64,000 bases of DNA, taken from assembly GCA_000004985.1 (NCBI GenBank), contig GG738857.1. One strand, given 5' to 3'. Below the pieces are notes generated by a model. That model did no database searches. It saw nothing but the letters and a program-made list of their open reading frames with translations, and was not told where the DNA came from. The first letter of the stretch is position 1. The number at the start of each line of letters is the position of its first letter. This DNA comes from Naegleria gruberi. Its lineage: Eukaryota. This document shows, in pieces, positions 4,511-62,574 of the stretch. A program made the translations under genes and the position numbers.

Positions 4511-6343
4511 TTAATTTTGGAATGGTTGTGGAACAAATCCTGGTTGTTGAGTTTGTACTGGTTGTAAAGTAGAAACTGGAATTGCTTGGAGATAACCACC
4601 TCTACCTCTTCCACCCCTAATAGATAAGCCACCTCTGCCACCCCTAATAGGTAATCCACCTCTTCCACCCCTAATAGGTAATCCACTACCTCTACCACTG
4701 TAAGAATAAGTGCTACAGGTTATTCCTCTTGGCATTGTTCCTTTCGGTTGTTTTGTCCTTTCTGTGTTGGGATCTTTAAATTTTCCATTCTTTCTAGATC
4801 GTGGTCGTGCTTCCTCCAACAAATCATCAACATGTTGTTCATTAAATTCGAATTGAGGAAACTCTGCCCTTACAGAATCAATAATCTTTGCTTTGAACAT
4901 TAGCAAGGCATTGGTGAAAGACTTTCTTGGACCATCACTAAGGAACATGTGAAAAATCTCCTCCTCTGTTAAGGTTGAGTTTGGAAATTTCCACATGTGA
5001 AATTCTTTCCACTTTTGAATCATGAATACTGTAAAATTGGTAAAGATCTCGAGATTTGGTTTGCTCAAATCCAATGCACGTCTCTTCATAATTCTTCCTA
5101 GAACATGTTGATACAAGCTCATAAAATCATTTGTTCTTGGTGTCATTAATTTTGGGTTATTTTTGGTCTGTTTCAGTAATCTGAATTCTCCATGAGCGTA
5201 ATTTCTTTCAAACAGATGGAAGAATAAATTCTTTTCGTCCATTTTGGTTGCCAATCGTATCATTTCTTCCAAAGGTTTGCAGTCAATTTGCAAAGATTTT
5301 TCACTATGCTTAGGGGAGGTCTCGTTGAGTAAATAAAACTTTGTCCATTTGAAAACTTGTTCTGTAAAATCAAGATGAAGACGTTTTTCCATTTGTTTTT
5401 CAAACATTAGTTTCCAGTTTCTAACTTTAGATTTGGAGAGTCTCAATCTGTTGGAATCAAATAATAGAGAGTTCAATTTCATATCTAAACTCTCGAAAAA
5501 TTCAAACTCTTCATCTCCAAATGAAACTACTGGAATTCCTACCTTCTTTACATTAAGCAATGTTTCGTATAATCTCTCAACATTTCTGTGTTGCTTAATG
5601 TAGGAATGCATTGAGGTAGTGTCACCAAATTCCTCCTTTGAAGATAACCAGTGAGGGAAATACTTATTAAGGTCTCTAATAGAATTCTCCAATCTAAAGA
5701 AAACTTTTGATGCAGTAAATTCTGACTTGGGGTTTCGAATTTGTTTCTTCATTTCGCTTTTTTTAGCATAATAGTAAAAATAAACTTGCTCCTTATATTG
5801 TAATTGATTCCATTTCGTTTTCAATTCCTTACTTGTAGATACCAAATCATTCTTCCTATTAACAAACTTTTCCTTTCCATTCGCGTAATTCGAAAACCTT
5901 TCAATTTCATTTCGAATAGCCAAGAAGGTCAACAATTCATAATAAGGACTCGATCTCACCTTCTCCACTTCCATCTCTTTCAAACTAGAAACACCCAACA
6001 TTTTACAACTAATCTCTGAACTGATCAACAATAATTTCTTCACCACTCGATCATTCAAATCCAAAAACAAACAAATGTGAAAATAAATTTCCCAAGGCAA
6101 ATGCGCAAAATCTTCATCATGATCTCCTCGTTTCATAGGAATACTTGTATTTCGTCTGCTCCTGTGTGTAGTTTCAACATTATTCGAATCTTGAAGACCA
6201 AAGAGAATGAAATCCTTCTCTTTCCATTGATTCTTTCTAATATTCTTTCTTTTTTGCTTGTTTTTAATGCCCTGTTCTGAAAGACCAACAAGCCTTCGTT
6301 TAACACCTTTGGGGAGTGAATGGGGAAGGAAGTTTTGAGACAT
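4511..6343 (-). CDS. F-box-like protein with C-terminal Gly/Arg-rich repeats (GGRGGLPIR x4, RGG-box-like)
   Basis: 610-aa ORF. F-box-like segment HLPWEIYFHICLFLDLNDRVVKKLLLISSEIS; C-terminal ...GRGSGLPIRGGRGGLPIRGGRGGLSIRGGRGRGG. Confidence 0.55.
   Translation of the reverse strand: MSQNFLPHSLPKGVKRRLVGLSEQGIKNKQKRKNIRKNQWKEKDFILFGLQDSNNVETTHRSRRNTSIPMKRGDHDEDFAHLPWEIYFHICLFLDLNDRVVKKLLLISSEISCKMLGVSSLKEMEVEKVRSSPYYELLTFLAIRNEIERFSNYANGKEKFVNRKNDLVSTSKELKTKWNQLQYKEQVYFYYYAKKSEMKKQIRNPKSEFTASKVFFRLENSIRDLNKYFPHWLSSKEEFGDTTSMHSYIKQHRNVERLYETLLNVKKVGIPVVSFGDEEFEFFESLDMKLNSLLFDSNRLRLSKSKVRNWKLMFEKQMEKRLHLDFTEQVFKWTKFYLLNETSPKHSEKSLQIDCKPLEEMIRLATKMDEKNLFFHLFERNYAHGEFRLLKQTKNNPKLMTPRTNDFMSLYQHVLGRIMKRRALDLSKPNLEIFTNFTVFMIQKWKEFHMWKFPNSTLTEEEIFHMFLSDGPRKSFTNALLMFKAKIIDSVRAEFPQFEFNEQHVDDLLEEARPRSRKNGKFKDPNTERTKQPKGTMPRGITCSTYSYSGRGSGLPIRGGRGGLPIRGGRGGLSIRGGRGRGGYLQAIPVSTLQPVQTQQPGFVPQPFQN
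4594..4700. repeat. Tandem 27-nt repeat, about 4 units, encoding the PIRGGRGGL repeats of the gene above
   Basis: Units such as ccacctctgccacccctaatagataag / ccacctcttccacccctaataggtaat are directly visible. Confidence 0.6.
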
Positions 6344-6508: not shown

Positions 6509-6940
6509 TTACAATTTATTCTTGTCGGCAGTTGCTGCAAGAATGTAAATTCTACAATTTGCATTTCTTTGTCTATTCTCTTTCAAAATATCAAAGTATG
6601 TACTGTTTCTACTTTGTAACAAGTTAATATTATTCACAATGATGGTATTAAAGTGATTAATTTTGGCTTGTCCTGGATAATCACCTAAAACATCATTAAA
6701 AGCATCCCAATTATTTCCAAAATAATCCACAAATTGTAAAGTTTCATTAAAAGTTGTGAATAATGCTTGAGCCGAGTCCAGTTTATCTCCTCTCACATTG
6801 ATAATGGCCACATTTTGATTGGTATTCAATTTGTCCTTGCAACCTTGTTCGATTTGAGCAAGTTTACTTCTCTCTAAAAAGATAATTTCATCTTGTTGGT
6901 TATTCAAGATATCTTGAATCAATGTATTAAAATCTGACAT
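6509..6940 (-). CDS. Barstar-like (barnase-inhibitor fold) protein
   Basis: 143-aa ORF. The core NVAIINVRGDKLDSAQALFTTFNETLQFVDYFGNNWDAFNDVLGDY aligns with barstar ([40 protein letters not shown]). The C-terminal half also follows the barstar pattern. Confidence 0.6.
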   Translation of the reverse strand: MSDFNTLIQDILNNQQDEIIFLERSKLAQIEQGCKDKLNTNQNVAIINVRGDKLDSAQALFTTFNETLQFVDYFGNNWDAFNDVLGDYPGQAKINHFNTIIVNNINLLQSRNSTYFDILKENRQRNANCRIYILAATADKNKL

Positions 6941-7112
6941 TTTTTTCTATTGTTTTTGACCTCACCAAAGCTATGCTTTTAATCATGCTTTTAATTAGCA
7001 AGCGGAGTCATGATTTTATAAAAATAGCAAGTAACCTTCTAAATTTTCGATTATCCTTATTCATATTGGTGACTTGATTTTCTTTGAATTATTGTAATAA
7101 TGAAGAATCAAA

Positions 7113-7493
7113 TTATTGTAAAATCATTTTCAATTCTTGTCTTCTCTCCTCAAATCTCTGCACAATTTCCAAATAATCATTCATAACACAATTCTGACAT
7201 CCATTTCCACAGCACACTATTGTATAACTCTCCATATCTGGATATAATTTTTCCAAATCTTTAATATTATCCACTCGATTAATCTTTTCCAAAACTTGAT
7301 CCTTTTGCTCAAAGGTAAAACTCTTCAGCGATTGATGAAATGATGATTTGGTCAAAGTAGTCCACCCAAAACTAATACTATTATTCGGATTAGAATTACT
7401 ATTTATCAGCAACATCTTCTTTATATTGTTGCTCTTTGGAAAATTAATTCTTCCTCTTCCGAATGAAAAAAGACTTCCTAGATGATGAAACAT
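7113..7493 (-). CDS. Oxidoreductase-like-domain (OXLD1-type) protein, probably mitochondrial
   Basis: The C-terminus carries the diagnostic YTIVCCGNGCQNCVMNDYLEIV motif (CCGxGCxxCVW family). The N-terminus is basic and hydroxylated, resembling a presequence. Confidence 0.6.
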   Translation of the reverse strand: MFHHLGSLFSFGRGRINFPKSNNIKKMLLINSNSNPNNSISFGWTTLTKSSFHQSLKSFTFEQKDQVLEKINRVDNIKDLEKLYPDMESYTIVCCGNGCQNCVMNDYLEIVQRFEERRQELKMILQ

Positions 7494-9178: not shown

Positions 9179-11313
9179 TTGGTTAATCAATGTGGTACAG
9201 ATGTATACTATTATATGTGGTTCAGCAAGTATTTGATTGTTTATGTGGTTGTTTGTGGATTGGTTGCTTGTGGCTCTCTTTTGCCAACCTATTTGACCAC
9301 CACTGATTACAATGTCTCATTTGGTGACTTTTCTTCAACTAGTATTGCCAACATGAGTATCAAGACCAATGATAAGATTTACGTCTTTTTCCTTGTTACT
9401 ATTGCATTCCCAATCCTTGGTCTTGTCTTTATTTATGGTTTGAATAGATTGTCTAGACAGTTAATCAAGTCAAGAACCAACATTGGTTCCTTGTACACTG
9501 TCATGGTTAATGGAATTTCAAGAAGTGTAAGAGATAGGAAGAAATTATTGGAGGACTTTAAGCAAAGATATGGAGATTGTGTTGTTGATGCCCATTTAGC
9601 TCTTGATCTCAATAATTTGAGTGAATTGGATGAAAAGAGAGAGGATTTGGAGAGGATGTTGAGAGGAGCTGAACGTGAATATGAAAAGAGTGGCCGTAGA
9701 CCACAAATCAAAGTTAAGGGTCTGATGGGATTTTTCGGAAAGAAGGTTGATGCTATTGAAGAATACAGCAAGGCCTTGGAAAGTGTCAATAAGGAGATTA
9801 ACATTCTCAGACTCAATCCAAACAAGACTATTCACGGTACCGGATATGGATTTGTGACCTTCTCAACAATGGATGACGCACAAAGATGTCTCAATGAACA
9901 CAAGGATATCAATTGTTGTTGTGGTATTTCTATTCCTTGGTGGTTATGCTCTCCAAGTGGATGGGGATACGGAGGTATTGAAAGAGCTCCAGAACCAGAT
10001 GATGTTCTCTTTGAAAATTTGAGTATTGGATCAACCAATCGTTGGGTTAGATCATTGATCTCATCTGCTGTTATTACATCCTTCTTGCTTTTGATCTATG
10101 CCATCTCAACAACAGTTTCCTGGTACTATTGGTATAAGGGTCAAAACTATAGCTCTGTAAAAGATTACTTTATAGATACTGATGCTTCCGTTATTGGAGT
10201 TGATACTTTGGCCTTAGTTTTGATGGTTCTGGCCGAGTTGTTGCCTGAAGCCGTCTCACTCACCAATGAAATTGTTAAACCAGTCATTGAAGTTTTGAGT
10301 GACTATGAAAAGCATCCATCAAGAACATCCAGAAGAAAAACCATCCTCAGAAAGACAATTTTCTTTATTACCTTGTCTATTATGATCTTCCCATTCTTTA
10401 TCAGATGGATTAAGGCTGTGTGGGGTGTTAGTATGAATGCAGATTTTCCATTCAACAATTATGCCTATTTTTTCAACTTTATTGGCACTGAAGTGGCTAC
10501 ACTTATTATGGCTTTGTGTACAATTGCCAAATCTTTGGAATATACATTCATGTTTATCATTATAATGGTCAAGTATAGATTCAGTGACAATGGTAATGGA
10601 AATAGGGAATTAGAAAGACTTCCTTTCGATTATGAAGCCAACATTGGAGTCAAGATTGCAATTCTCATGCTAACCCTTCTTTACGGAAGTGCTGTCCCAT
10701 GCATGTTTGCATTCTCCTTAATTTACTATGTGGTTACTTATTATTTGGACAAGTATTTGATTTTATACTTTTTCGAGAAGGCCCCAGACAGTGATGGTAC
10801 TCTAATGAGAACTACTTCAGACACATTGGCTTACTATCTTTCCATCTATCCAATTTTGGTTATTTTCATGATTCCTTCATTGGCTAGCTTATGGTCAACT
10901 TGGCTTATTTACTTGCCAACTATTTTTGTTTTCTACATGGTTGTTCGTATTGTTAGAAATAGAATGTCAAGATCAGAGATGGACATGTTGGTAGTTTCCT
11001 TGAGTAGTATGCCTCATGATGATATTGAAAAACAAGAGGAAGTGGATATTAATGCAGGAGATAGTTTGGAAATGGAGGTTACCGATTCAGCTAGTCCATC
11101 TTCACCAATTTCCATTCCTCAAAGAATTCCAGTCAAGAATGGCATTGCCACATCCTCTATTAGGTCCTTGATGAGCTTTGTTGCTGGTGAGGAACAAGTA
11201 GTTTCCATCTATGATAAGGAAGTTGAGAAACGTCTTGATGTCGATCAAAGAGTATTGGCCTCTCGTTACAGACATCCATACTTGAAAAAGGATAAGAGAA
11301 GAGCTGCATCAGC
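9179..11313 (+). CDS. OSCA / TMEM63 / CSC1-family (DUF221, RSN1_7TM) stress-gated cation channel. The 3' end is lost in the assembly gap. The true start is probably the ATG near 9214 or an upstream exon.
   Basis: Domain order: N-terminal TM helices, then a cytosolic domain (..MVNGISRSVRDRKKLLEDFKQRYG.. and ..KTIHGTGYGFVTFSTMDDAQRC.., an RRM-like PHM7_cyt pattern), then a 7-TM block typical of CSC1/OSCA. Confidence 0.65.
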
Positions 11314-12236
11314 NNNNNNNNNNNNNNNNNNNNNNNNNNNNNNNNNNNNNNNNNNNNNNNNNNNNNNNNNNNNNNNNNNNNNNNNNNNNNNNNNNNNNNN
11401 NNNNNNNNNNNNNNNNNNNNNNNNNNNNNNNNNNNNNNNNNNNNNNNNNNNNNNNNNNNNNNNNNNNNNNNNNNNNNNNNNNNNNNNNNNNNNNNNNNNN
11501 NNNNNNNNNNNNNNNNNNNNNNNNNNNNNNNNNNNNNNNNNNNNNNNNNNNNNNNNNNNNNNNNNNNNNNNNNNNNNNNNNNNNNNNNNNNNNNNNNNNN
11601 NNNNNNNNNNNNNNNNNNNNNNNNNNNNNNNNNNNNNNNNNNNNNNNNNNNNNNNNNNNNNNNNNNNNNNNNNNNNNNNNNNNNNNNNNNNNNNNNNNNN
11701 NNNNNNNNNNNNNNNNNNNNNNNNNNNNNNNNNNNNNNNNNNNNNNNNNNNNNNNNNNNNNNNNNNNNNNNNNNNNNNNNNNNNNNNNNNNNNNNNNNNN
11801 NNNNNNNNNNNNNNNNNNNNNNNNNNNNNNNNNNNNNNNNNNNNNNNNNNNNNNNNNNNNNNNNNNNNNNNNNNNNNNNNNNNNNNNNNNNNNNNNNNNN
11901 NNNNNNNNNNNNNNNNNNNNNNNNNNNNNNNNNNNNNNNNNNNNNNNNNNNNNNNNNNNNNNNNNNNNNNNNNNNNNNNNNNNNNNNNNNNNNNNNNNNN
12001 NNNNNNNNNNNNNNNNNNNNNNNNNNNNNNNNNNNNNNNNNNNNNNNNNNNNNNNNNNNNNNNNNNNNNNNNNNNNNNNNNNNNNNNNNNNNNNNNNNNN
12101 NNNNNNNNNNNNNNNNNNNNNNNNNNNNNNNNNNNNNNNNNNNNNNNNNNNNNNNNNNNNNNNNNNNNNNNNNNNNNNNNNNNNNNNNNNNNNNNNNNNN
12201 NNNNNNNNNNNNNNNNNNNNNNNNNNNNNNNNNNNN
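11314..12236. other. Assembly gap (923 N)
   Basis: n run. The ORF-track entries translated as X across this span are artefacts. Confidence 0.99.
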
Positions 12237-14174
12237 CTCATCATTATCCTCTCCATCTGAAGATCGATTCGTATTTTTCACAAATAAACAGCAATAAATT
12301 GAACAACTCGAGAAACAGAGCAAAACTAAAAAGGTCAACCCTAACACTCCAACCATTCCATATCCAACCTCAATTGGGAATGTGTTAAAAATTGGAATCT
12401 TTGGACTTCTACTATAAATAAGTGGGAAGAATAAACAAATGGCAGAGAAGAGTAGAAAGATGAGTACAATAATCAATGTGCATAGCCCTCCAAAAGCACA
12501 GCACAGAGAATACCAAATATTATCACCTGGTGTTGAAGTTTGCTCAATCACTGCTGCAGGAATATAAATCCCAGAATTGTTACTTGTTGAAAAGGATGAA
12601 AAGTAGCTCGGTATCTTCTTAATTTGAACAATATTCTGATTCAAATCTTGTTGGTGAACTGCTTGTTGCTGCTGCTGACCTTCTTGATTGCCGATTGCTG
12701 CTGCTGTTGCATTAGTGTTAGCTCCATTTCCCTCTTCAAGTTTGTGTTGTTGGTTTGGATTTTCCATTGTATTGACATTCTGGTGTTCATTCTCGTCCTT
12801 TGTGTGAAGTTTGAAAAGTGTTTTAATTCCCTCAAAGTTTTCAGCACTCGTTATATGCAAATAACACAGCAATTGTTCACTCGTATACTTGGACAGCAAT
12901 CTCTTACTTCTATAATAGTCATAGTAACGATAGTTTTGTCTGAGCTTTCTTCTCTTTGATTCCAATTCTTCAACTTCTTGATTATCTATGATATTGTGAT
13001 AATCAAATTCAATTTCAAAATTTGGGAAAAACTTGACTCCAATATCATAAATTGCTTCCTCAAATACCTCGTGATAATGTGCCAGAGTTGACTTTCTAAA
13101 TTTGTGTTTTGGTCTATTCTTAATATTAAATACTATACAAAGGAGAATGCATCCAACAAGTGTAATTGTGAAAATTGCACTCAAAACTATTGAAAAAGTT
13201 CCTTCAGCAACTGCATCTTTTAAAACTACAAAGTAAATGAGAGCTAGTGCCAAAGTACCGACAGCAGCTGCCAAAGTTGAAACACACAAAATGAAAAGGT
13301 AGACATTGACAGATTCGAATATTGAACATTTCATCAATTCATCTTGAGTAATTCGTTTCATCACATTTCCCAATAGCATTAATTCCTTTCTCTGTTTATC
13401 AGTCAAATTCAATGAATGAAGTGAATAAATTATTTGTTGTTGTTGCAAAATGGTCAATCGTGTTCTCAAATGTGCTGGAATTTGTGGAATTTCAGAAAGT
13501 AAATCAAACGAAATTGGTGGAGGATCTTGACTTTTCAACAATTCCAATTCATCAGGTGTAAAATCAAGATCATTATCTAACAAATCATTTTCTGTATCGT
13601 CATCATCATAATCTTCCTTTCGTTTCTTTTTCTTCTTTTTTCCTGAATTTTCTTGTTTTTGATCTACTGCACCTTGTTGCTCAACTGTTGTTGCTGTTGC
13701 TGTTGCCACTACTACACCTGCTAATTGTTGTTGTTGTTGTGGTTGTTGTGGTGATTGAGGCACAGTGGAAGGAGAGGCAACTCTATTTGGTTGTAAAGGA
13801 TGATCATTGGTTGTAATGGGTGGTGAACAGGCAATATTTCCATCATTGTGAATGTTATTGTTGTTGGTACTGCTGTTGTTCGGAATATTGTTCAATTGTA
13901 CTGTCATTTCCTGTTGTTGTTGTTGTTGTTGCAAATTCAAATTCAAATTCAAATTATTAATAGTATTATTATTAGTATTGGAATTAATTTGATTTGGTGG
14001 TAATGAGACAAGTGTTGGTTGATCGAAATTTCTAGTGATGGTTTTTTCGGGAGAGTTATTGTTTATATCTGGTAGGACAACAATAATTTGAGAAGCATCA
14101 TGGTTAGTCGTGGCCACCTCCTCCAATTTGGACTTGTCACTTGCTTGTTCGTTATTGGGATGGAGTTGTGACAT
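12237..14174 (-). CDS. Poly-Q/N-rich multi-pass membrane protein. It starts at ATG 14174 and its C-terminus is lost in the gap.
   Basis: ORF 11160-14174 minus the gap portion. The N-terminus has long N/Q/T-rich tracts (NNNTINNLNLNLNLQQQQQQQ), followed by two hydrophobic multi-helix blocks. Confidence 0.5.
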
Positions 14175-18828: not shown

Positions 18829-19993
18829 NNNNNNNNNNNNNNNNNNNNNNNNNNNNNNNNNNNNNNNNNNNNNNNNNNNNNNNNNNNNNNNNNNNNNNNN
18901 NNNNNNNNNNNNNNNNNNNNNNNNNNNNNNNNNNNNNNNNNNNNNNNNNNNNNNNNNNNNNNNNNNNNNNNNNNNNNNNNNNNNNNNNNNNNNNNNNNNN
19001 NNNNNNNNNNNNNNNNNNNNNNNNNNNNNNNNNNNNNNNNNNNNNNNNNNNNNNNNNNNNNNNNNNNNNNNNNNNNNNNNNNNNNNNNNNNNNNNNNNNN
19101 NNNNNNNNNNNNNNNNNNNNNNNNNNNNNNNNNNNNNNNNNNNNNNNNNNNNNNNNNNNNNNNNNNNNNNNNNNNNNNNNNNNNNNNNNNNNNNNNNNNN
19201 NNNNNNNNNNNNNNNNNNNNNNNNNNNNNNNNNNNNNNNNNNNNNNNNNNNNNNNNNNNNNNNNNNNNNNNNNNNNNNNNNNNNNNNNNNNNNNNNNNNN
19301 NNNNNNNNNNNNNNNNNNNNNNNNNNNNNNNNNNNNNNNNNNNNNNNNNNNNNNNNNNNNNNNNNNNNNNNNNNNNNNNNNNNNNNNNNNNNNNNNNNNN
19401 NNNNNNNNNNNNNNNNNNNNNNNNNNNNNNNNNNNNNNNNNNNNNNNNNNNNNNNNNNNNNNNNNNNNNNNNNNNNNNNNNNNNNNNNNNNNNNNNNNNN
19501 NNNNNNNNNNNNNNNNNNNNNNNNNNNNNNNNNNNNNNNNNNNNNNNNNNNNNNNNNNNNNNNNNNNNNNNNNNNNNNNNNNNNNNNNNNNNNNNNNNNN
19601 NNNNNNNNNNNNNNNNNNNNNNNNNNNNNNNNNNNNNNNNNNNNNNNNNNNNNNNNNNNNNNNNNNNNNNNNNNNNNNNNNNNNNNNNNNNNNNNNNNNN
19701 NNNNNNNNNNNNNNNNNNNNNNNNNNNNNNNNNNNNNNNNNNNNNNNNNNNNNNNNNNNNNNNNNNNNNNNNNNNNNNNNNNNNNNNNNNNNNNNNNNNN
19801 NNNNNNNNNNNNNNNNNNNNNNNNNNNNNNNNNNNNNNNNNNNNNNNNNNNNNNNNNNNNNNNNNNNNNNNNNNNNNNNNNNNNNNNNNNNNNNNNNNNN
19901 NNNNNNNNNNNNNNNNNNNNNNNNNNNNNNNNNNNNNNNNNNNNNNNNNNNNNNNNNNNNNNNNNNNNNNNNNNNNNNNNNNNNNNNNNNNNN
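18829..19993. other. Assembly gap (1165 N)
   Basis: n run. Confidence 0.99.
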
Positions 19994-22220: not shown

Positions 22221-24176
22221 ATGATTACCAAAACAGAAGAGGTGGTAAACGGTATGACTATAATAACTCCAACAAAAATGGAGGAAAAAATGGAACCTCA
22301 AATTCCAAGTGACCCCATAATAGGGGGAAGGTTATCCAAATTTTCAAAGGAGTGGGAAAAGATAACCTCCAACAAAACAATATTAGATTGGGTAAAGAAT
22401 GGTCTAACAATCAACCACAACCCCCAACTAATCCATCCACTTCCACAGAGAGAACCAACGAAAGAGAAAGAGAAAATTTGGTTCCAAGAACACATAGAAC
22501 AACTGAAACAACAAGAAATGATTATAGAAGTTTCCAACAAAGAAGAAGTATTAATTCACCCAATCTACCTCATACCAAAGCGAAATTCAACAGAGCCATT
22601 CAGACCAATTTTAGATATGAGAGGGGCAAACTCTGGAATAGAAACGCTTCACTTCAAACAAGAAACGTTGAAGACAATAATGAAATTGTTAAAAAGAGGT
22701 CAATGGTGTGGAAAAATAGATCTGAAATCTGGTTACAATCACCTAAAAATAGAACGCAATTCACAGCATCTTCTAGCCTTCCAATTCAACAACAAAAGGT
22801 ACAAATACACAACTCTTCCATTTGGGCTAAATATCGCACCAAGAACATTTCACAAGATTATGAAAACAGCAATCACTCAATTAAGAAAAGAAAGTATAGT
22901 CATATTCTTCTATCTGGACGATATTTTAATAATAGGAAATTCCTTTCAAGAATGTCAGAAAAACATAGAAAGAACGAGACAATTATTAGAAAGTCTTGGC
23001 TTTGTAATTCAGATGAAAAAGTCAGTACTGTCTCCTGTTCAAGAAATAGATTTTTTAGGATCAACAATCAACACAAAACTAGGAACACTTTGTCTTCAGA
23101 AAGAAAAAATCAACACAGCCCAAAAGATCCTCAAGAAACTAGAATTGAAACATTTAAGTCAACGAAGAATCAAGATCAGAAAGTTCCAATCAATAATAGG
23201 GAAATTGATGTTCCTAAGTACAATAGACAAGAACTTAAGACCTTTTCTAATTCGACCTCAACATCACATTTCAAATATGGTAACAAAGAAAGGATGGTTA
23301 GGAGAAATGCATATCTTACGAAGCGATTTTCAAGATTTAAAGACAATCTCTGCAATCCTAAAACAATCAAAAGGAACAACGTTCGAACTAGAAACAACAT
23401 TACAAATCCTAACAACGGACTCATCGACGACAGGTTTTGGTGGAGTATCCAAAAACCTAATAATGCATGGCAGATGGAGCCATCAAATTCAAGAATACCA
23501 TATCAATTTAAAAGAATTACTAGCAGTCGAACAAATGATATTGGCAATTCAAAAGAACAAGTCTTTTTCAAAAGGAACACAATTTCACGTACGAACAGAC
23601 AATCAAGTAATCATGACTTACCTCAAGAATGGAGGAGGAAAAGTAGATTACTTAGCAACAGTAGCAAGAAGAATATGGAAAATATGTATCAACAACAATT
23701 GGCTAATCAGAAAAGTAACGTACCTTCCTTCCAAAGAAAATTTCTTTGCAGACAAGCTCTCAAGATTGGGAGAATGGGAAATAATCAATTCAACTTTCAA
23801 TCAACTCCAGCAAAAATTTGGTCCTTTCAGCATAGACCAATTTGCAAGCCAAACAAATTGCAAAGTAAGAAGGTTCGGTCAAAGAAACTTCTATCAGGAT
23901 GCTTTTTTGAACAATTGGGAACAGGAGAACAATTATTTGGTTCCTCCCTTAGGCTTAATCCTCCCAACAGTAACACACTTACTAAAAAGCAAAGCAAAGG
24001 CTCTTCTAATCGTTCCAAAATGGGAAAGCGCAGTTTGGTGGCCAGTTCTAATGAAGATAACACAAGAAACATTATTCTTAACGAAAGAGGACATGATCTT
24101 CAATCAAGACATGGAACTATCCAGAAACTCAGAATGGAACTTTGTAGCACTAAAGGTTCAAGCAACCACCTACTAA
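22221..24176 (+). CDS. Element ORF2, reverse transcriptase plus RNase H
   Basis: RT motifs ...LPFGLNIAPRTFHKIM... and YLDDILIIG. An RNase H-like C-terminal part follows. 651 aa. Confidence 0.75.
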   Translation: MITKTEEVVNGMTIITPTKMEEKMEPQIPSDPIIGGRLSKFSKEWEKITSNKTILDWVKNGLTINHNPQLIHPLPQREPTKEKEKIWFQEHIEQLKQQEMIIEVSNKEEVLIHPIYLIPKRNSTEPFRPILDMRGANSGIETLHFKQETLKTIMKLLKRGQWCGKIDLKSGYNHLKIERNSQHLLAFQFNNKRYKYTTLPFGLNIAPRTFHKIMKTAITQLRKESIVIFFYLDDILIIGNSFQECQKNIERTRQLLESLGFVIQMKKSVLSPVQEIDFLGSTINTKLGTLCLQKEKINTAQKILKKLELKHLSQRRIKIRKFQSIIGKLMFLSTIDKNLRPFLIRPQHHISNMVTKKGWLGEMHILRSDFQDLKTISAILKQSKGTTFELETTLQILTTDSSTTGFGGVSKNLIMHGRWSHQIQEYHINLKELLAVEQMILAIQKNKSFSKGTQFHVRTDNQVIMTYLKNGGGKVDYLATVARRIWKICINNNWLIRKVTYLPSKENFFADKLSRLGEWEIINSTFNQLQQKFGPFSIDQFASQTNCKVRRFGQRNFYQDAFLNNWEQENNYLVPPLGLILPTVTHLLKSKAKALLIVPKWESAVWWPVLMKITQETLFLTKEDMIFNQDMELSRNSEWNFVALKVQATTY

Positions 24177-25099
24177 CATTATTCAAAGCAAGAGATGTTA
24201 TCCTCAAATACAAGTTAGCTGATTCGACAATCAGAACATACAGAAACCACGTTAACAAATTTAAAGATTTTTGTTTCTGGTATAACATTGAAAGATGTTG
24301 GAATCTGAATTCCATTTCCCTTTATCTCACAAACATGTTATTGAAAGGCTCAGGTGGGTCAGTGAAACAAGCATGTGCCGCCCTTCAACATGAAACCAAA
24401 TGTTTGGGCATTGTGGTTGATTGGAAAAATTCAATAATTTCCGATATCAGATCATCTACAACAAAGATATGGTCTCTCTTTGATAGAGAAAAACTAATTA
24501 GAGAACCATTTGATTTAGCTAACCTAAAATATTGGTTAGAAAACCCACCAAACATTGACCCTTGGTCATTCAAACTCTATGCTGCAGTAATTGCTGTTGG
24601 TGTTCGTGCATTAATGAGACCTGGAGAGTTAGCGGATTTGTCATTCGGTGATGTGTCTTACAATAAGGATGGTCATTTAGTTTTCACTTTAGGACAAACA
24701 AAAACAGATCAACAAGGAAAAGGTGAAAAAATTACTATTGAACCTTCCTATTCCGAAATATGTCCTGTCAAAATATTCCAAACCTATTATGATCACTGTA
24801 AGCAATTTAAATCTCCTAAGTGCCCATTATTTAGCAACCCTAGATCCAACACATTCTTTAGAACTGCAGATATTTCTAATATAGTGAAATATGTATCACA
24901 ACATAATCCAAACAACACTTCAATTGTCTCTGGACATTCACTTAGAAAAAGAGGTGCTACACATCTTGCAAAATCTGGTTACACATCTTCTCAACTAAAA
25001 GTTGCTGGACGATGGAGATCTGATTGTTACTTAACATACATATCAGAAGAAATCTTACCTTCCTTAGGTACTTCAAATACTTTATTCTCGGGACAATAA
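24134..25099 (+). CDS. Element ORF3, tyrosine recombinase (phage-integrase-like). It overlaps the end of ORF2 in another frame.
   Basis: Catalytic-residue pattern R (ALMRPGELADL), H-x-x-R (GHSLRKRGATHLA) and the nucleophile Tyr region (WRSDCYLTYI). The upstream part of track ORF 22352-25099 is an overlapping-frame artefact. Confidence 0.6.
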   Translation: MELCSTKGSSNHLLTLFKARDVILKYKLADSTIRTYRNHVNKFKDFCFWYNIERCWNLNSISLYLTNMLLKGSGGSVKQACAALQHETKCLGIVVDWKNSIISDIRSSTTKIWSLFDREKLIREPFDLANLKYWLENPPNIDPWSFKLYAAVIAVGVRALMRPGELADLSFGDVSYNKDGHLVFTLGQTKTDQQGKGEKITIEPSYSEICPVKIFQTYYDHCKQFKSPKCPLFSNPRSNTFFRTADISNIVKYVSQHNPNNTSIVSGHSLRKRGATHLAKSGYTSSQLKVAGRWRSDCYLTYISEEILPSLGTSNTLFSGQ

Positions 25100-46939: not shown

Positions 46940-49699
46940 TTGGAATCTGTTAAACAAAATGGATATGCATTTAAATATGCCGATGAGTTATTGAAAAAAG
47001 ATGAAGAGTTTATATTGGAAGTTGTTAAACAAGATGGATTGGCAATTAAACATGCTGATTCATCATTACAAAAAGATAGAGAAATTGTATTGGAAGCTGT
47101 TAAACAAAATGTATATGCACTTAAATATGCAGATTCATCATTGAAAAAAGATAGAGAAATTATATTGAAATCTGTTAAGAAAAATGGATTGACACTTGAA
47201 TTTACTGATTCATCATTGAAGAAAGATAGAGAAATTGTATCGGAAGCTGTTAAACAACATGGATTGGCAATTGAGTTTGCTGATTCATCATTTAAAAAAG
47301 ATAGAGAAATTGTATTGGAAGCTGTTAAGCAAAATGTGTATGCAATTGAATTTGCTGATTCATCATTGAAGAAAGATAGACAATTTGTACTAGAAGCTGT
47401 TACGAAAAATGGATTAGTACTTGAATATGCTGATTCATCATTGAAGAAAGATAGAGAATTTGTATTAGAATCTGTTACGAAAAATGGATATGCATTTCAA
47501 TATGCTGTTTCATCATTTAAAAAAGATAGAGAAATTGTATTGGAAGCTGTTAAACAAAATGGAGCAGCGCTTAAATATGCTGATGAATCAGTTAAGGGAG
47601 ACAGAGAAATTGTATTGGAAGCTGTTAAACAAAATGGATTGGCATTTAAATATATTTATTCATCATTGAAAAAAAATAGAGAAATTATATTGGAAGCTGT
47701 TAAACAAAATGGATCAGCACTTAAACATGCTGATTCATTTTTGAAGAAAGATAGAGAAATTGTATCGGAAGCTGTTAAACAAAATGGATTGGCACTTCAG
47801 TTTGCTGATTCATCATTTAAAAAAGATAGAGAAATTGTATTGGAATCTGTTAAAAAAAATGGATCAGCACTTGAATATGCTGATTCATCATTTAAAAAAG
47901 ATAGAGAATTTATTTATTTGCTATTTAAATTGAACAAAGAAAATGCAAGAAACTTCTCACCATCTATATCCAAAACCATTGAAGAATGCTTAAATATTCA
48001 GAGAAAGCTGTCAAGCAATATAACTGAACAATACTCCAAAATATTTATGGATGAAAAGGATTTATATTATGCTATTGAATTAACAAGTCTCTTTAATCCA
48101 ACACCAAAAGGTACAATATTCAATTTCAATTCTATCTATACACCAATATTTATTGAAAAATTGATTATTTTTCAAATATTGAAACAAATGAACCATTCAG
48201 AATTGTCTAATGATATTATTGCTCTTATTGATTTACAAAGTACCAAAGCTAACTATTATTTATATTGTTTCAGATTGGACAAATTTCTTGAAGATAATCC
48301 CTGTCAATCAACAAGAATGAAAGATTTGAAGAATATTGTGGAACAAGTTGCAACAAACTTTGAAACGTCATTTTATACAAAACAGGAAATTAATGAAATT
48401 ATGATTTTTGCCAACAAGTGGTTTGAAAATGAGCAAACATTTGAAAATTACAAACAAATAATTTGTAAATATAATGAGCTGAGAGGAGATTTATCAAAAG
48501 TATTCAAATCTCTTAATTATTTCTATAATTATTTCAAAAATGATTATGATTTCATTTCAGTATTAGGATATGGAGGTGAAGGTGTTGCATTCAAAGTATT
48601 TCATAAAAGTAGTAAATCATTAAGGGCTTTAAAATTGAAATATGACCCAGAGGAATCTGAAGAATCAACAAAAGAAACCATTAATTTATTGAAAAGAACA
48701 GACATTGAAGGAAAGATCAAATGTTTTGATTGTGAAATTATTCAAAATCATTTATATTCAGTGATGGAACTTGGAGAGGAATCATTATCAAATTACATTT
48801 CAAGAAATAATGAAAGTGAAATTTATAGAAATGGATTCATTATTAAGGAAAAACTAATTGAAATTCTTGATATATTTATCAAAGTATTGAACTCAGTTCA
48901 ATCAATTCATGATCACAATATTTTACACAGAGATTTAGATCCTCAAAATATTGTCAAAGTTCAAGATTTATACAAAATTATTGATTTTGAAACATCAAGA
49001 GTGATCAAGACAGGTAATTCAATTACAATTGCTCGTGGAAAGTTTGCATACATGTCTCCTGAAGTTTCACATGATAATTATTCTGATGATTTATTGAAAA
49101 GTGGTAATGATGAAAAGCTTGCTCACAATGTTGGACAAATTACCATTTCATGTGATATATTTTCATTGGGATGTATTTTGTTGAAATTATTAACCAATTG
49201 TCCTTTGCAACTATGTTCAACATTTCTGAATGATTCAGATGTCTCTAAATATAATGATAATTACTTGTATTTTAGTGGACATGGAAAATATTTCTATACA
49301 GTTGTGACAACAACAGAGGGAGAAATGAAATTACATTATGCAATTGAAAAACTAATCAATGAAACAATTAATCCAGATTTAGGAGTGAATAACATATTGA
49401 TTAGAAGCATTATTAGCATGATTCAAAGAGATTCATCAAAAAGATTGGATTGTTATTCTCACAAGTTAACAATTGAGAATATTTTGAAATTTTTGAAAGG
49501 AGAAATCAAAGATATCACTTTCAATATTGAAAAACAAGTTGGAGAATTGAAGAAAATATCACCATTAAGAAGTTACTCTCAACTTGTAGAGGAAAATACC
49601 AAACTATTAGAAAGAATTAAATTATTGGAAGAGAACTCTTTATTGGAACGAATTAAAATGTTGGAAGAGGAAATAATAAATCTAAAAACAGACCAATAA
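46940..49699 (+). CDS. DUF4116-repeat protein with a C-terminal atypical protein kinase domain, copy 1. The long ORF is intact from the TTG at 46940, but no in-frame upstream ATG is available.
   Basis: About 11 tandem 29-aa DUF4116-type repeats (LEAVKQNGLALxYADSSLKKDREIV). The kinase part has GYGGEGVAFKV, HRDLDPQNIV, DFETSR and YMSPEV, followed by a C-terminal coiled coil. Confidence 0.6.
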   Translation: MESVKQNGYAFKYADELLKKDEEFILEVVKQDGLAIKHADSSLQKDREIVLEAVKQNVYALKYADSSLKKDREIILKSVKKNGLTLEFTDSSLKKDREIVSEAVKQHGLAIEFADSSFKKDREIVLEAVKQNVYAIEFADSSLKKDRQFVLEAVTKNGLVLEYADSSLKKDREFVLESVTKNGYAFQYAVSSFKKDREIVLEAVKQNGAALKYADESVKGDREIVLEAVKQNGLAFKYIYSSLKKNREIILEAVKQNGSALKHADSFLKKDREIVSEAVKQNGLALQFADSSFKKDREIVLESVKKNGSALEYADSSFKKDREFIYLLFKLNKENARNFSPSISKTIEECLNIQRKLSSNITEQYSKIFMDEKDLYYAIELTSLFNPTPKGTIFNFNSIYTPIFIEKLIIFQILKQMNHSELSNDIIALIDLQSTKANYYLYCFRLDKFLEDNPCQSTRMKDLKNIVEQVATNFETSFYTKQEINEIMIFANKWFENEQTFENYKQIICKYNELRGDLSKVFKSLNYFYNYFKNDYDFISVLGYGGEGVAFKVFHKSSKSLRALKLKYDPEESEESTKETINLLKRTDIEGKIKCFDCEIIQNHLYSVMELGEESLSNYISRNNESEIYRNGFIIKEKLIEILDIFIKVLNSVQSIHDHNILHRDLDPQNIVKVQDLYKIIDFETSRVIKTGNSITIARGKFAYMSPEVSHDNYSDDLLKSGNDEKLAHNVGQITISCDIFSLGCILLKLLTNCPLQLCSTFLNDSDVSKYNDNYLYFSGHGKYFYTVVTTTEGEMKLHYAIEKLINETINPDLGVNNILIRSIISMIQRDSSKRLDCYSHKLTIENILKFLKGEIKDITFNIEKQVGELKKISPLRSYSQLVEENTKLLERIKLLEENSLLERIKMLEEEIINLKTDQ

Positions 49700-59872: not shown

Positions 59873-61305
59873 ATGTCTGAAGATTGGGTTTGTGTTTTGT
59901 GATGCGATTTTATTAATGGGGGTGTGATGACTATCACAAATAATAGGCCGATAGGACATATGTGTTAGAAGCTGTTAAACAACGTGGAAATGCACTTAAA
60001 TATGCCGATGAAGCATTTAAAAAAGATAGAGAAATTGTATTGGAGGCTGTTAAAAAAAACGGATTAATAATTCAATATGCTGATTCATCATTGAAAAGAG
60101 ATAGAGAAATTGTATTGGAAGCTGTTAAACAGCGTGGATATGCAATTCAATATGCTGATTCATTGTTAAAGAAAGATAGAGAAATTGTATTGGAATGTGT
60201 TAAACAAGATGGATTGGCACTTGAATATGTTGATTTATCATTACAAAAAGATAGAGAAATTGTGTTGGCAGCTGTTAAACAAAATGGATTGGCACTTCGA
60301 TATGCTGATTCATCATTGAAAAAAGATAGAGAAATTGCATTGGAATCTGTTAAACAACGTGGATATGCAATTCAATATGCTGATTCGTTGTTAAAGAAAG
60401 ATAGAGAAATTGTATTGGAAGCAGTTAAACAAGATGGATTGGCACTGCAATATGCTTATTTTCAAAATGACAGAGAAATTGTATTGGAAGCTGTTAAGCA
60501 AAATGGATCAGCAGTTGAATACGCTGATTCATCATTGAAAAAAGATAGAGAATTTATATTGGAATCTGTTAAACAACATGGATTGACTCTTAAATATGCT
60601 GATTCATTATTGAAGAAAGATAGAGAAGTTGTTTCGGAAGCTGTTAAACAAGATATATTGGCACTTAAATATGTTGATTCATCATTTAAAAGAGATAGAG
60701 AATTTATATTGGAAGCAGTTAAACAACATTCATTGGCACTTGAATATGCTGATTCATCTTTACAAAGAGATATCGTTTTTACTTATTCACTTTTTAAATT
60801 GAACAAAGAAAATGCAAGAAAGTTCTCACCCTCTATAACCAAAACCATTGAAGAATCCATTAATCTTCAGAGAAAGCTGTCAAGCAATATAATTGAACAA
60901 TACTCCAAAATATTTATGGATGAAAAGGATTTATATTATGCTATTGAATTAACAAGTCTCTTTAATCCAACACCAAAAGGTACAATATTCAATTTCAATT
61001 CTATCTATACACCAATATTTATTGAAAAATTGATTATTTTTCAAATATTGAAACAAATGAACCATTCAGAATTGTCTAATGATATTATTGCTCTTATTGA
61101 TTTACAAAGTACCAAAGCTAACTATTATTTATATTGTTTCAGATTGGACAAATTTCTTGAAGATAATCCCTGTCAATCAACAAGAATGAAAGATTTGAAG
61201 AATATTGTGGAACAAGTTGCAACAAACTTTGAAACGTCATTTTATACAAAACAGGAAATTAATGAAATTATGATTTTTGCCAACAAGTGGTTTGAAAATG
61301 AGTAA
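59873..61305 (+). CDS. DUF4116-repeat + kinase gene, copy 2. Mini-exon 1 (59873-59887, MSEDW), an intron at 59888-59946, and a repeat exon from 59947. The reading frame ends at an in-frame TAA at 61303-61305, where copy 1 has CAA.
   Basis: Donor GTTTGT and acceptor AATAATAG, phase 0. About 10 DUF4116-type repeats. The downstream sequence stays collinear with copy 1 beyond the TAA. Confidence 0.55.
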
Positions 61306-62574
61306 ACATTTGAAAATTACAAACAAATAATTTGTAAATATAACGAGCTGAGAGGAGATTTATCAAAAGTATTCAAATCTCTCAATTATTTCTATAATTA
61401 TTTCAAAAATGATTATGATTTCATTTCAGTATTAGGATATGGAGGTGAAGGTGTTGCATTCAAAGTATTTCATAAAAGTAGTAAATCATTAAGGGCATTA
61501 AAATTAAAATATGACCCAGAGGAATCTGAAGAATCAACAAAAGAAACCATTAATTTATTGAACAGAACAGACATTGAAGGAAAGATCAAATGTTTTGATT
61601 GTGAAATTATTCAAAATCATTTATATTCAGTGATGGAACTTGGAGAGGAATCATTATCAAATTACATTTCAAGAAATAATGAAAGTGAAATTTATAGAAA
61701 TGGATTCATTAAGAAGGAAAAGTTGATTGAAATTCTTGAAATATTTATCAAAGTATTGAACTCAGTTCAATCAATTCATGATCACAATATTTTACACAGA
61801 GATTTAGATCCTCAAAATATTGTCAAAGTTCAAGATTTATACAAAATTATTGATTTTGAAACATCAAGAGTTATCAAGACAGGTAATTCAATTACAATAG
61901 CTCGTGGAAAGTTTGCATACATGTCTCCTGAAGTTTCACATGATAATTATTCTGATGATTTATTGAAAAGTGGTGATGATGAAAAACTTGCTCACAATGT
62001 TGGACAAATTACCATTTCATGTGATATATTTTCATTGGGATGTATTTTATTGAAATTATTAACAAATTGTCCATTACAACTATGTTCAACATTTGTTAAT
62101 GATTCAGATGTCTCAAAATATAATGACAAGTATCCATATTTTAGTGGTCATGGAAAATATTTCTATACAGTTGTAACAACAACAGAGGGAGAAATGAAAT
62201 TACATTATGCAATTGAAAAACTAATCAATGAAACGATTAATCCAGATTTAGGAGTGAATAACATATTAATTAGAAGCATTATTAGCATGATTCAAAGAGA
62301 TTCATCAAAAAGATTGGATTGTTATTCTCACAAGTTAACAATTGAGAATATTTTGAAATTTTTGAAAGGTGAAATCAAAGATATCACTTTGAATATTGAA
62401 AAACAAGTTGGAGAATTGAAGAAAATCTCACCATTAAGAAGTTACTCTCAACTTGCTGAAGAAAATAACAAAATTACAGATGAAAAAACCAAACTTTCGG
62501 ATGAAAATAGCAACCTGTTAGAAAGAATTAAAATGTTGGAAGAGGAAATAAGAAAACTCACACAAACCATATGA
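61306..62574 (+). CDS. Kinase-domain portion of copy 2, in frame with and downstream of the TAA. It is either a separated ORF, the tail of a pseudogene, or part of a readthrough product.
   Basis: Near-identical to copy 1 at 48430-49650 (GYGGEGVAFKV, HRDLDPQNIV, DFETSR). The C-terminal coiled coil differs (LAEENNKITDEKTKLSDENSNLLERIKMLEEEIRKLTQTI). Confidence 0.5.
   Translation, partial: TFENYKQIICKYNELRGDLSKVFKSLNYFYNYFKNDYDFISVLGYGGEGVAFKVFHKSSKSLRALKLKYDPEESEESTKETINLLNRTDIEGKIKCFDCEIIQNHLYSVMELGEESLSNYISRNNESEIYRNGFIKKEKLIEILEIFIKVLNSVQSIHDHNILHRDLDPQNIVKVQDLYKIIDFETSRVIKTGNSITIARGKFAYMSPEVSHDNYSDDLLKSGDDEKLAHNVGQITISCDIFSLGCILLKLLTNCPLQLCSTFVNDSDVSKYNDKYPYFSGHGKYFYTVVTTTEGEMKLHYAIEKLINETINPDLGVNNILIRSIISMIQRDSSKRLDCYSHKLTIENILKFLKGEIKDITLNIEKQVGELKKISPLRSYSQLAEENNKITDEKTKLSDENSNLLERIKMLEEEIRKLTQTI

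Follow-up and report, generated by a model that had tools for sequence, protein, structure and literature searches.

A stand-alone barstar-family gene in the amoeba Naegleria gruberi and its bacterial immunity relatives

Introduction

The question that is raised by this locus is what a protein of the barstar family does in a soil amoeba when no barnase-like gene is found next to it. The gene lies in a stretch of 64,000 nucleotides from Naegleria gruberi (contig GG738857.1; the whole stretch is called the window here and all coordinates refer to it), and the original prediction, which was made from these letters, offered either protection against bacterial RNase toxins or a recruited regulatory role as the answer. 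Imm-Barstar was listed earlier for 'Eukaryotes: dictyosteliida, Naegleria, chlorophyta' (Zhang et al., 2012, Biol Direct 7:18, PMC3482391, Table 3), Tox-Barnase was listed in no eukaryote, and the occasional transfer of immunity genes to eukaryotes was discussed in the same work (Zhang et al., 2012). What was noticed is thus real, yet it had been catalogued before, and as the PF01337 label of the protein is also precomputed, it is less new than the original prediction implied. What is new here is a conserved heterolobosean clade with a triplication in Willaertia, an N-terminal extension of bacterial type, nearest bacterial relatives that are true immunity genes linked to toxins, and the finding that no RNase partner lies near the eukaryotic copies searched.

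The gene and its host context

A reading frame of 143 amino acids with the peptide that was originally quoted is present at 6509..6940 on the minus strand. It belongs to a eukaryotic genome, as was assumed: the protein is 100% identical to a 'predicted protein [Naegleria gruberi]' of a 573-kb contig, an entry that already carries the PF01337 label. The start codon is unambiguous because the stop-to-stop frame reaches just two codons 5' of the ATG. The gene and its parts are as follows.

6509..6940, minus strand: barstar-like coding sequence, single exon, 143 codons plus the stop codon at 6509-6511 (open reading frame list, 100% identity over 100% of the annotated protein, PF01337)
6806..6940, minus strand: N-terminal extension, residues 1-45, with predicted helix 2-13, strand 19-22 and helix 24-36 (AF2, block pLDDT 72-92)
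6512..6805, minus strand: barstar core, residues 46-143, with predicted strand 44-48, helix 57-68, helix 78-86, strand 99-103, helix 109-125 and strand 130-136
6677..6733, minus strand: predicted RNase-binding loop and helix, residues 70-88, FVDYFGNNWDAFNDVLGDY (alignments with barstar)
6941..7112, minus strand: upstream intergenic region of 172 bp, which ends at the stop of the neighbouring minus-strand gene 7113-7493 (Oxidored-like domain; open reading frame map and Pfam) and presumably contains the promoter of the barstar-like gene

The protein is probably cytosolic, because its pI is 5.05 and there is no hydrophobic, signal-peptide-like segment at its N-terminal.

The barstar family is overwhelmingly bacterial, and one could suspect that the locus is not an amoeba gene at all but stems from contaminating bacterial DNA or a faulty assembly. 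Yet the gene is located inside the 573-kb contig between eukaryotic genes, several kb from the nearest assembly gaps, and its neighbours in the window encode F-box proteins, a CSC1/OSCA-type channel, Ras/Roc GTPases, NHL/EGF receptor kinases, DUF4116-repeat kinases and a DIRS-like retroelement. With 16 neighbouring reading frames as the reference, the values of the gene lie in their range: GC is 0.301 and GC3 is 0.271 (neighbour means 0.339 ± 0.026 and 0.288 ± 0.028), and a CAI-like codon index is 0.757 (neighbour range 0.665-0.777). Orthologues are found in host-like sequence, in Willaertia magna, where the GC content is about 24%, as well as on an environmental contig of eukaryotic origin with about 39%, and the best bacterial identity is about 40% over the domain. 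Since composition and codon usage match the host and the neighbours are eukaryotic, contamination is excluded and we give it practically no weight. The host-matching composition fits an old acquisition.

Predicted barstar fold and binding residues

The match to PF01337 (Barstar) has an E-value of 1.5e-12 and 47.8 bits, above the gathering score of 23.4, and aligns residues 46-119 with profile positions 3-73 of 96. It is centred on a well-conserved motif, LQF-x-DYFGNNWDAFNDVL, and no low-complexity sequence is involved. Barstar membership along the domain, as originally claimed, is thus supported by the profile, and the predicted fold agrees with it. When a single sequence was used to search the PDB sequences, barstar was matched weakly (E about 0.5), and an NCBIfam search with the protein gave no match. 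An AlphaFold model built from a 97-sequence alignment (the single-sequence model, with pLDDT 39, was unusable) predicts the alpha/beta fold of barstar with three parallel strands packed against helices, and the N-terminal extension is predicted to form one added beta-alpha unit ahead of this core.

The alignments place Y73, D79 and D83 as the equivalents of barstar Y29, D35 and D39, so that the tyrosine and the DxxxD pair are both present, and E121 is probably the equivalent of E76. The D39 equivalent is acidic in 93/93 relatives and the D35 equivalent is Asp in 72/93; N. gruberi has kept all the key acidic residues and the YFGxNW motif without change. Compared with the Bacillus amyloliquefaciens barstar (PDB 1a19, 1brs), the N. 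gruberi protein is of the same family by profile, predicted fold and binding motif and is likewise acidic without a signal peptide. It differs in that the identity is about 20%, a 45-residue helix-strand-helix is added at the N-terminal, Asn occupies the position of Trp38, no barnase gene is adjacent and the host is a eukaryote.

Relatives in amoebae

An exhaustive phmmer scan of 1.84 billion representatives yielded two close relatives only (56% and 52% identity), followed by about 100 distant ones (E 1e-7 to 1e-3). The close relatives are Willaertia magna proteins and an environmental sequence, and a profile search then brought the W. magna copies to three and the environmental ones to two. 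In a metagenome scan for more copies of the amoeba type, the matches listed were distant relatives only, with 28-46% identity. One hit of the protein searches, P0004 (Algoriphagus aquaeductus, 1558 amino acids, 'beta strand repeat-containing protein'), reaches E 4.5e-8 through 15 separate stretches, the best-scoring of which covers residues 7-58; this match is probably due to composition or repeats and does not point to a barstar relative.

The three W. magna genes are located within about 36 kb on one 222-kb contig, where the duplication covers the barstar-like genes alone and the neighbours include kinase, G-alpha, PEPCK, thiolase and Med23 genes. The environmental copy P0108 is found on contigs with kinesin, F-box-Ras/Roc and mitochondrial-carrier genes, and the other environmental copy, P0003, is the sole gene on a 687-nt contig. 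There is no conserved synteny between species.

All six eukaryotic copies (one from N. gruberi, three from W. magna and two environmental) are single-exon genes, they share 40 invariant positions that include the whole binding motif, and they form one clade in 100/100 neighbour-joining bootstraps. With dN/dS values of 0.15-0.54 (unsaturated pairs), this clade is under purifying selection. Such conservation bears on the possibility that the gene was transferred long ago, no longer has a function and is now decaying as a relic. The small size of the protein, the missing partner gene and the single copy in N. gruberi could be read in this way, as could the fact that no homologue was seen in N. 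fowleri or N. lovaniensis, where the searches were not decisive (a single-query word index missed an orthologue of 58% identity). Against this, none of the six copies, which come from at least 4 genomes, has a broken frame, and the invariant binding motif and the dN/dS values are not those of a relic, which we regard as very improbable.

The clade also has changes of its own. The barstar Pro27 position, which is Pro in 90/93 relatives, has lost it in 6/6 eukaryotic copies, and a DLxW segment is replaced by DYPGQA in the amoeba copies. Two W. magna paralogues (L001:10001-10459 and L091:10001-10462, 97% identical) read NWHALLD, with His for Asp at the Asp35 position, where the third W. magna copy and all remaining amoeba copies keep Asp. 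The W. magna copies also have no acidic residue at the Glu76 position. Taken together, these two changes indicate an interface that is drifting or being retuned in the W. magna lineage.

Bacterial relatives and the N-terminal extension

The closest relatives outside the amoebae are bacterial 'long-form' barstars (Imm-Barstar) of about 155-175 amino acids from Nitrospirota, Actinomycetota, Chloroflexota and others, which are 30-45% identical over the domain at E 1e-7 to 1e-3 and have in common with the amoeba proteins the motif FPxYFGxNWDAFxDC as well as an N-terminal extension that is about as long. When the GTDB species genomes were scanned, 389 of 600 stretches that matched the pattern were confirmed as loci, and the best 80 of these were kept; these best 80 comprise 40 from Nitrospirota and 14 from Actinomycetota, and the rest include Chloroflexota, Planctomycetota and Bacillus. 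In 53 of these best 80 loci (an upstream reading frame was found in 76) the reading frame whose end lies directly ahead of the barstar-like gene has a match to PF00545 (barnase/Sa/T1 RNases). A metagenomic relative, P0007, likewise comes after a 1223-amino-acid RHS toxin with a PF00545 tip. The neighbour-joining sister group of the amoeba clade is bacterial, and its member P0011 sits after the C-terminal of a barnase-type toxin (E 9e-21). From this linkage to PF00545 and RHS toxins it follows that the subfamily is a genuine RNase-immunity family. Whereas the bacterial genes directly follow PF00545 RNase or RHS-RNase toxin genes or are part of polyimmunity arrays, the amoeba genes stand alone. 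We claim no donor lineage, because the identities are low and the GTDB list depends on the search pattern.

Two bacterial loci have arrangements that differ from these toxin pairs. P0005, another member of the sister group (L092:2-968), is located in a compact Imm53-Imm53-barstar array with overlapping frames, a polyimmunity locus with no toxin on its 1-kb contig. P0009 (L002:4207-5504) overlaps an upstream reading frame of 265 amino acids that has neither a Pfam match nor a hit to the barnase profile described below, and this frame may be an uncharacterised toxin type that is paired with a barstar-family protein. A giant-virus or phage route was also considered and set aside: it yielded one weak match, on a 51-kb IMG/VR viral contig (35%), and no BFVD match at E <= 0.001.

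The comparison with the long-form proteins also changes the reading of the N-terminal extension, which was originally taken as a feature of the eukaryotic copy. The extension exists, with about 45 residues, but it is not a eukaryotic addition. The tyrosine of the motif is at a median residue of 66 (interquartile range 55-69) in 93 bacterial-type relatives, as compared with residue 29 in the Bacillus barstar, and therefore the 'long form' is the norm of the bacterial subfamily; in N. gruberi the same tyrosine is residue 73, and it lies at 68-76 across the amoeba copies. When HHalign compares the amoeba profile with that of the bacterial long form, it gives 99.3% and E 3e-20, with a local alignment that begins at residue 41, and sequence similarity within the extension is weak. 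Since the alignment starts only there, homology of the extension itself rests on equal length and is likely, not proven.

Search for a partner RNase

The RNase domains of the 53 bacterial partners were combined with barnase into a barnase HMM, and its positive control reached 1.2e-25. In six-frame searches nothing better than E 4.5 was found in the 64-kb window, in the 20-kb W. magna locus L001 (copy P0002) or in the environmental P0108 contigs; at W. magna this search covered L001 only, the locus of one of the three copies. For the window this bears out the original statement that no barnase-like partner is adjacent. As no barnase-like reading frame is linked in the loci searched, the protein is a member of the barstar family that is not part of a linked barnase-barstar pair, and its 'orphan' status is established for the neighbourhoods seen only.

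A partner need not be linked. One possibility is self-protection, in which the protein would be an intracellular inhibitor of an unlinked, secreted barnase/T1-type RNase that the amoeba itself uses for feeding or for killing prey. This would be the canonical role of the family, which is paired with an RNase in the 53 bacterial loci mentioned above, and Naegleria took up bacterial toxin domains such as Ntox11 that are 'possibly secreted' (Zhang et al., 2012, PMC3482391). However, no PF00545-like reading frame was found in the window, the one W. magna locus or the environmental contigs, and the absence of Tox-Barnase from the eukaryotes listed also speaks against it, so that we hold self-protection to be rather improbable.

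Another RNase was found near one copy. At L091:10001-11989 (JBEGDK010000038.1), a W. magna copy lies 584 nt upstream of a gene for an RNase T2 with a signal peptide (PF00445) on the same strand, and no RNase T2 was found near the other W. magna copies or in the N. gruberi window. Being restricted to one W. magna copy, outside the duplicated segment, this arrangement is a probable coincidence and RNase T2 was rejected as a partner. It can also be cited for a repurposed binder, a protein that kept the scaffold and took up another partner (a different nuclease of the amoeba, for example RNase T2, or a protein that is not a nuclease) in a regulatory role. The two W. magna copies with His in place of Asp35 and the loss of Pro at the Pro27 position would agree with such a change, and there are precedents in SuFu and the cargo-binding domain of myosin VI for immunity domains that were recruited in eukaryotes (Zhang et al., 2012, PMC3482391). 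Nevertheless, the adjacency is seen at 1/6 eukaryotic loci, and RNase T2 has an unrelated fold and takes a secretory/lysosomal route, whereas the N. gruberi protein has no signal peptide. The acidic residues and the YFGxNW motif that N. gruberi strictly retains are a further argument against a new partner. We regard repurposing as unlikely. By their retention, the binding residues favour protection from bacterial RNase toxins over a recruited role.

A possible role in defence

The mechanism that best fits these data is that the protein is an orphan cytosolic immunity protein, acquired horizontally and directed against barnase-type RNases of bacteria, and we give this reading a probability of roughly 0.55. 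According to it, an ancestor of the heterolobosean lineage of Naegleria and Willaertia would have acquired a long-form barstar gene from bacteria by horizontal transfer, and the gene would since then have been maintained by purifying selection. The bacterial relatives plug the active site of the RNase with an acidic helix, which the amoeba protein retains, and because this helix is retained while no RNase gene is adjacent, an 'orphan' mechanism of immunity seems the most likely one. The protein would then bind and plug barnase-type RNases that enter the cytoplasm from bacteria that are eaten or fought, whether these RNases are secreted, injected or leaking from phagosomes, and the cellular RNA of this bacterivorous amoeba would thereby be protected. 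We infer that the N. gruberi protein still binds RNases and that its targets are bacterial.

Barstar is functional in the eukaryotic cytoplasm, as is known from the barnase/barstar cell-ablation and restorer systems, and Streptomyces RNases of the Sa group are also inhibited by barstar. On the other hand, we know of no barnase-type toxin that is delivered into amoebae, which counts against a role in defence, as do the Asn at the Trp38 position and the changes at the Asp35 and Glu76 positions in W. magna.

If bacterial barnase-type RNases are neutralised, the locus would be a clean and easily tested case of a predator protist that borrows the antidote of its prey, and it would bear on how amoebae survive among toxin-armed bacteria and on how frequently immunity genes cross kingdoms. 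A more tentative suggestion, which we consider possible but less likely than not, is that a bacterial immunity protein became, in heterolobosean amoebae, an inherited form of innate defence against the RNase toxins of prey or competitors, and that the three diverging Willaertia copies (Asp to His in the binding helix, dN/dS of about 0.5 between paralogues) show the protein being retuned to different toxins. Such a heritable defence, if true, would be a eukaryotic counterpart of the orphan-immunity arsenals of bacteria.

Comparison with other orphan immunity genes

Similar cases of immunity genes without their toxins are found in both bacteria and eukaryotes. In bacteria, orphan immunity genes and polyimmunity loci, such as the array of P0005, likewise keep an immunity gene without the toxin, presumably in order to resist the toxins of others; here, by contrast, it is a eukaryote that carries the gene, and the copies, of which W. 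magna has three, are scattered as single genes and form no operon-like array. PoNi in the Neocallimastigomycota gut fungi (bioRxiv 10.1101/2020.10.15.341461) is likewise a stand-alone bacterial immunity gene that became fixed in a microbial eukaryote living among bacteria, with a proposed anti-toxin role. It belongs to another protein family, and the transfer described here is old, with at most about 40% identity to bacteria as compared with >70% for PoNi. In Naegleria itself, Imm13 and Imm34 are also stand-alone bacterial immunity genes of another family (Zhang et al., 2012, PMC3482391).

Other features of the window

Runs of N, which represent assembly gaps, are located at 1357-1406, 11314-12236 and 18829-19993. 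Both large gaps give rise to spurious long reading frames in several frames, and the gap at 11314-12236 breaks the CSC1/OSCA-type channel gene (9179-12388). The minus-strand neighbour at 4511-6343 encodes 610 amino acids with no convincing Pfam domain and has RGG/PIRGGRGG repeats at its C-terminal. The DIRS-like retroelement is found at 22221-25099 on the plus strand, where one reading frame combines RVT_1 (E 5e-25) with a Dam-like N6-adenine methyltransferase domain and an overlapping frame encodes a tyrosine recombinase (Phage_integrase, E 5e-8). Two plus-strand genes, at 46940-49699 and 59962-62574, join 10-12 DUF4116 repeats to a protein kinase domain, and a DUF4116 kinase of a similar kind is located near a W. 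magna barstar copy (L001:490-4040).
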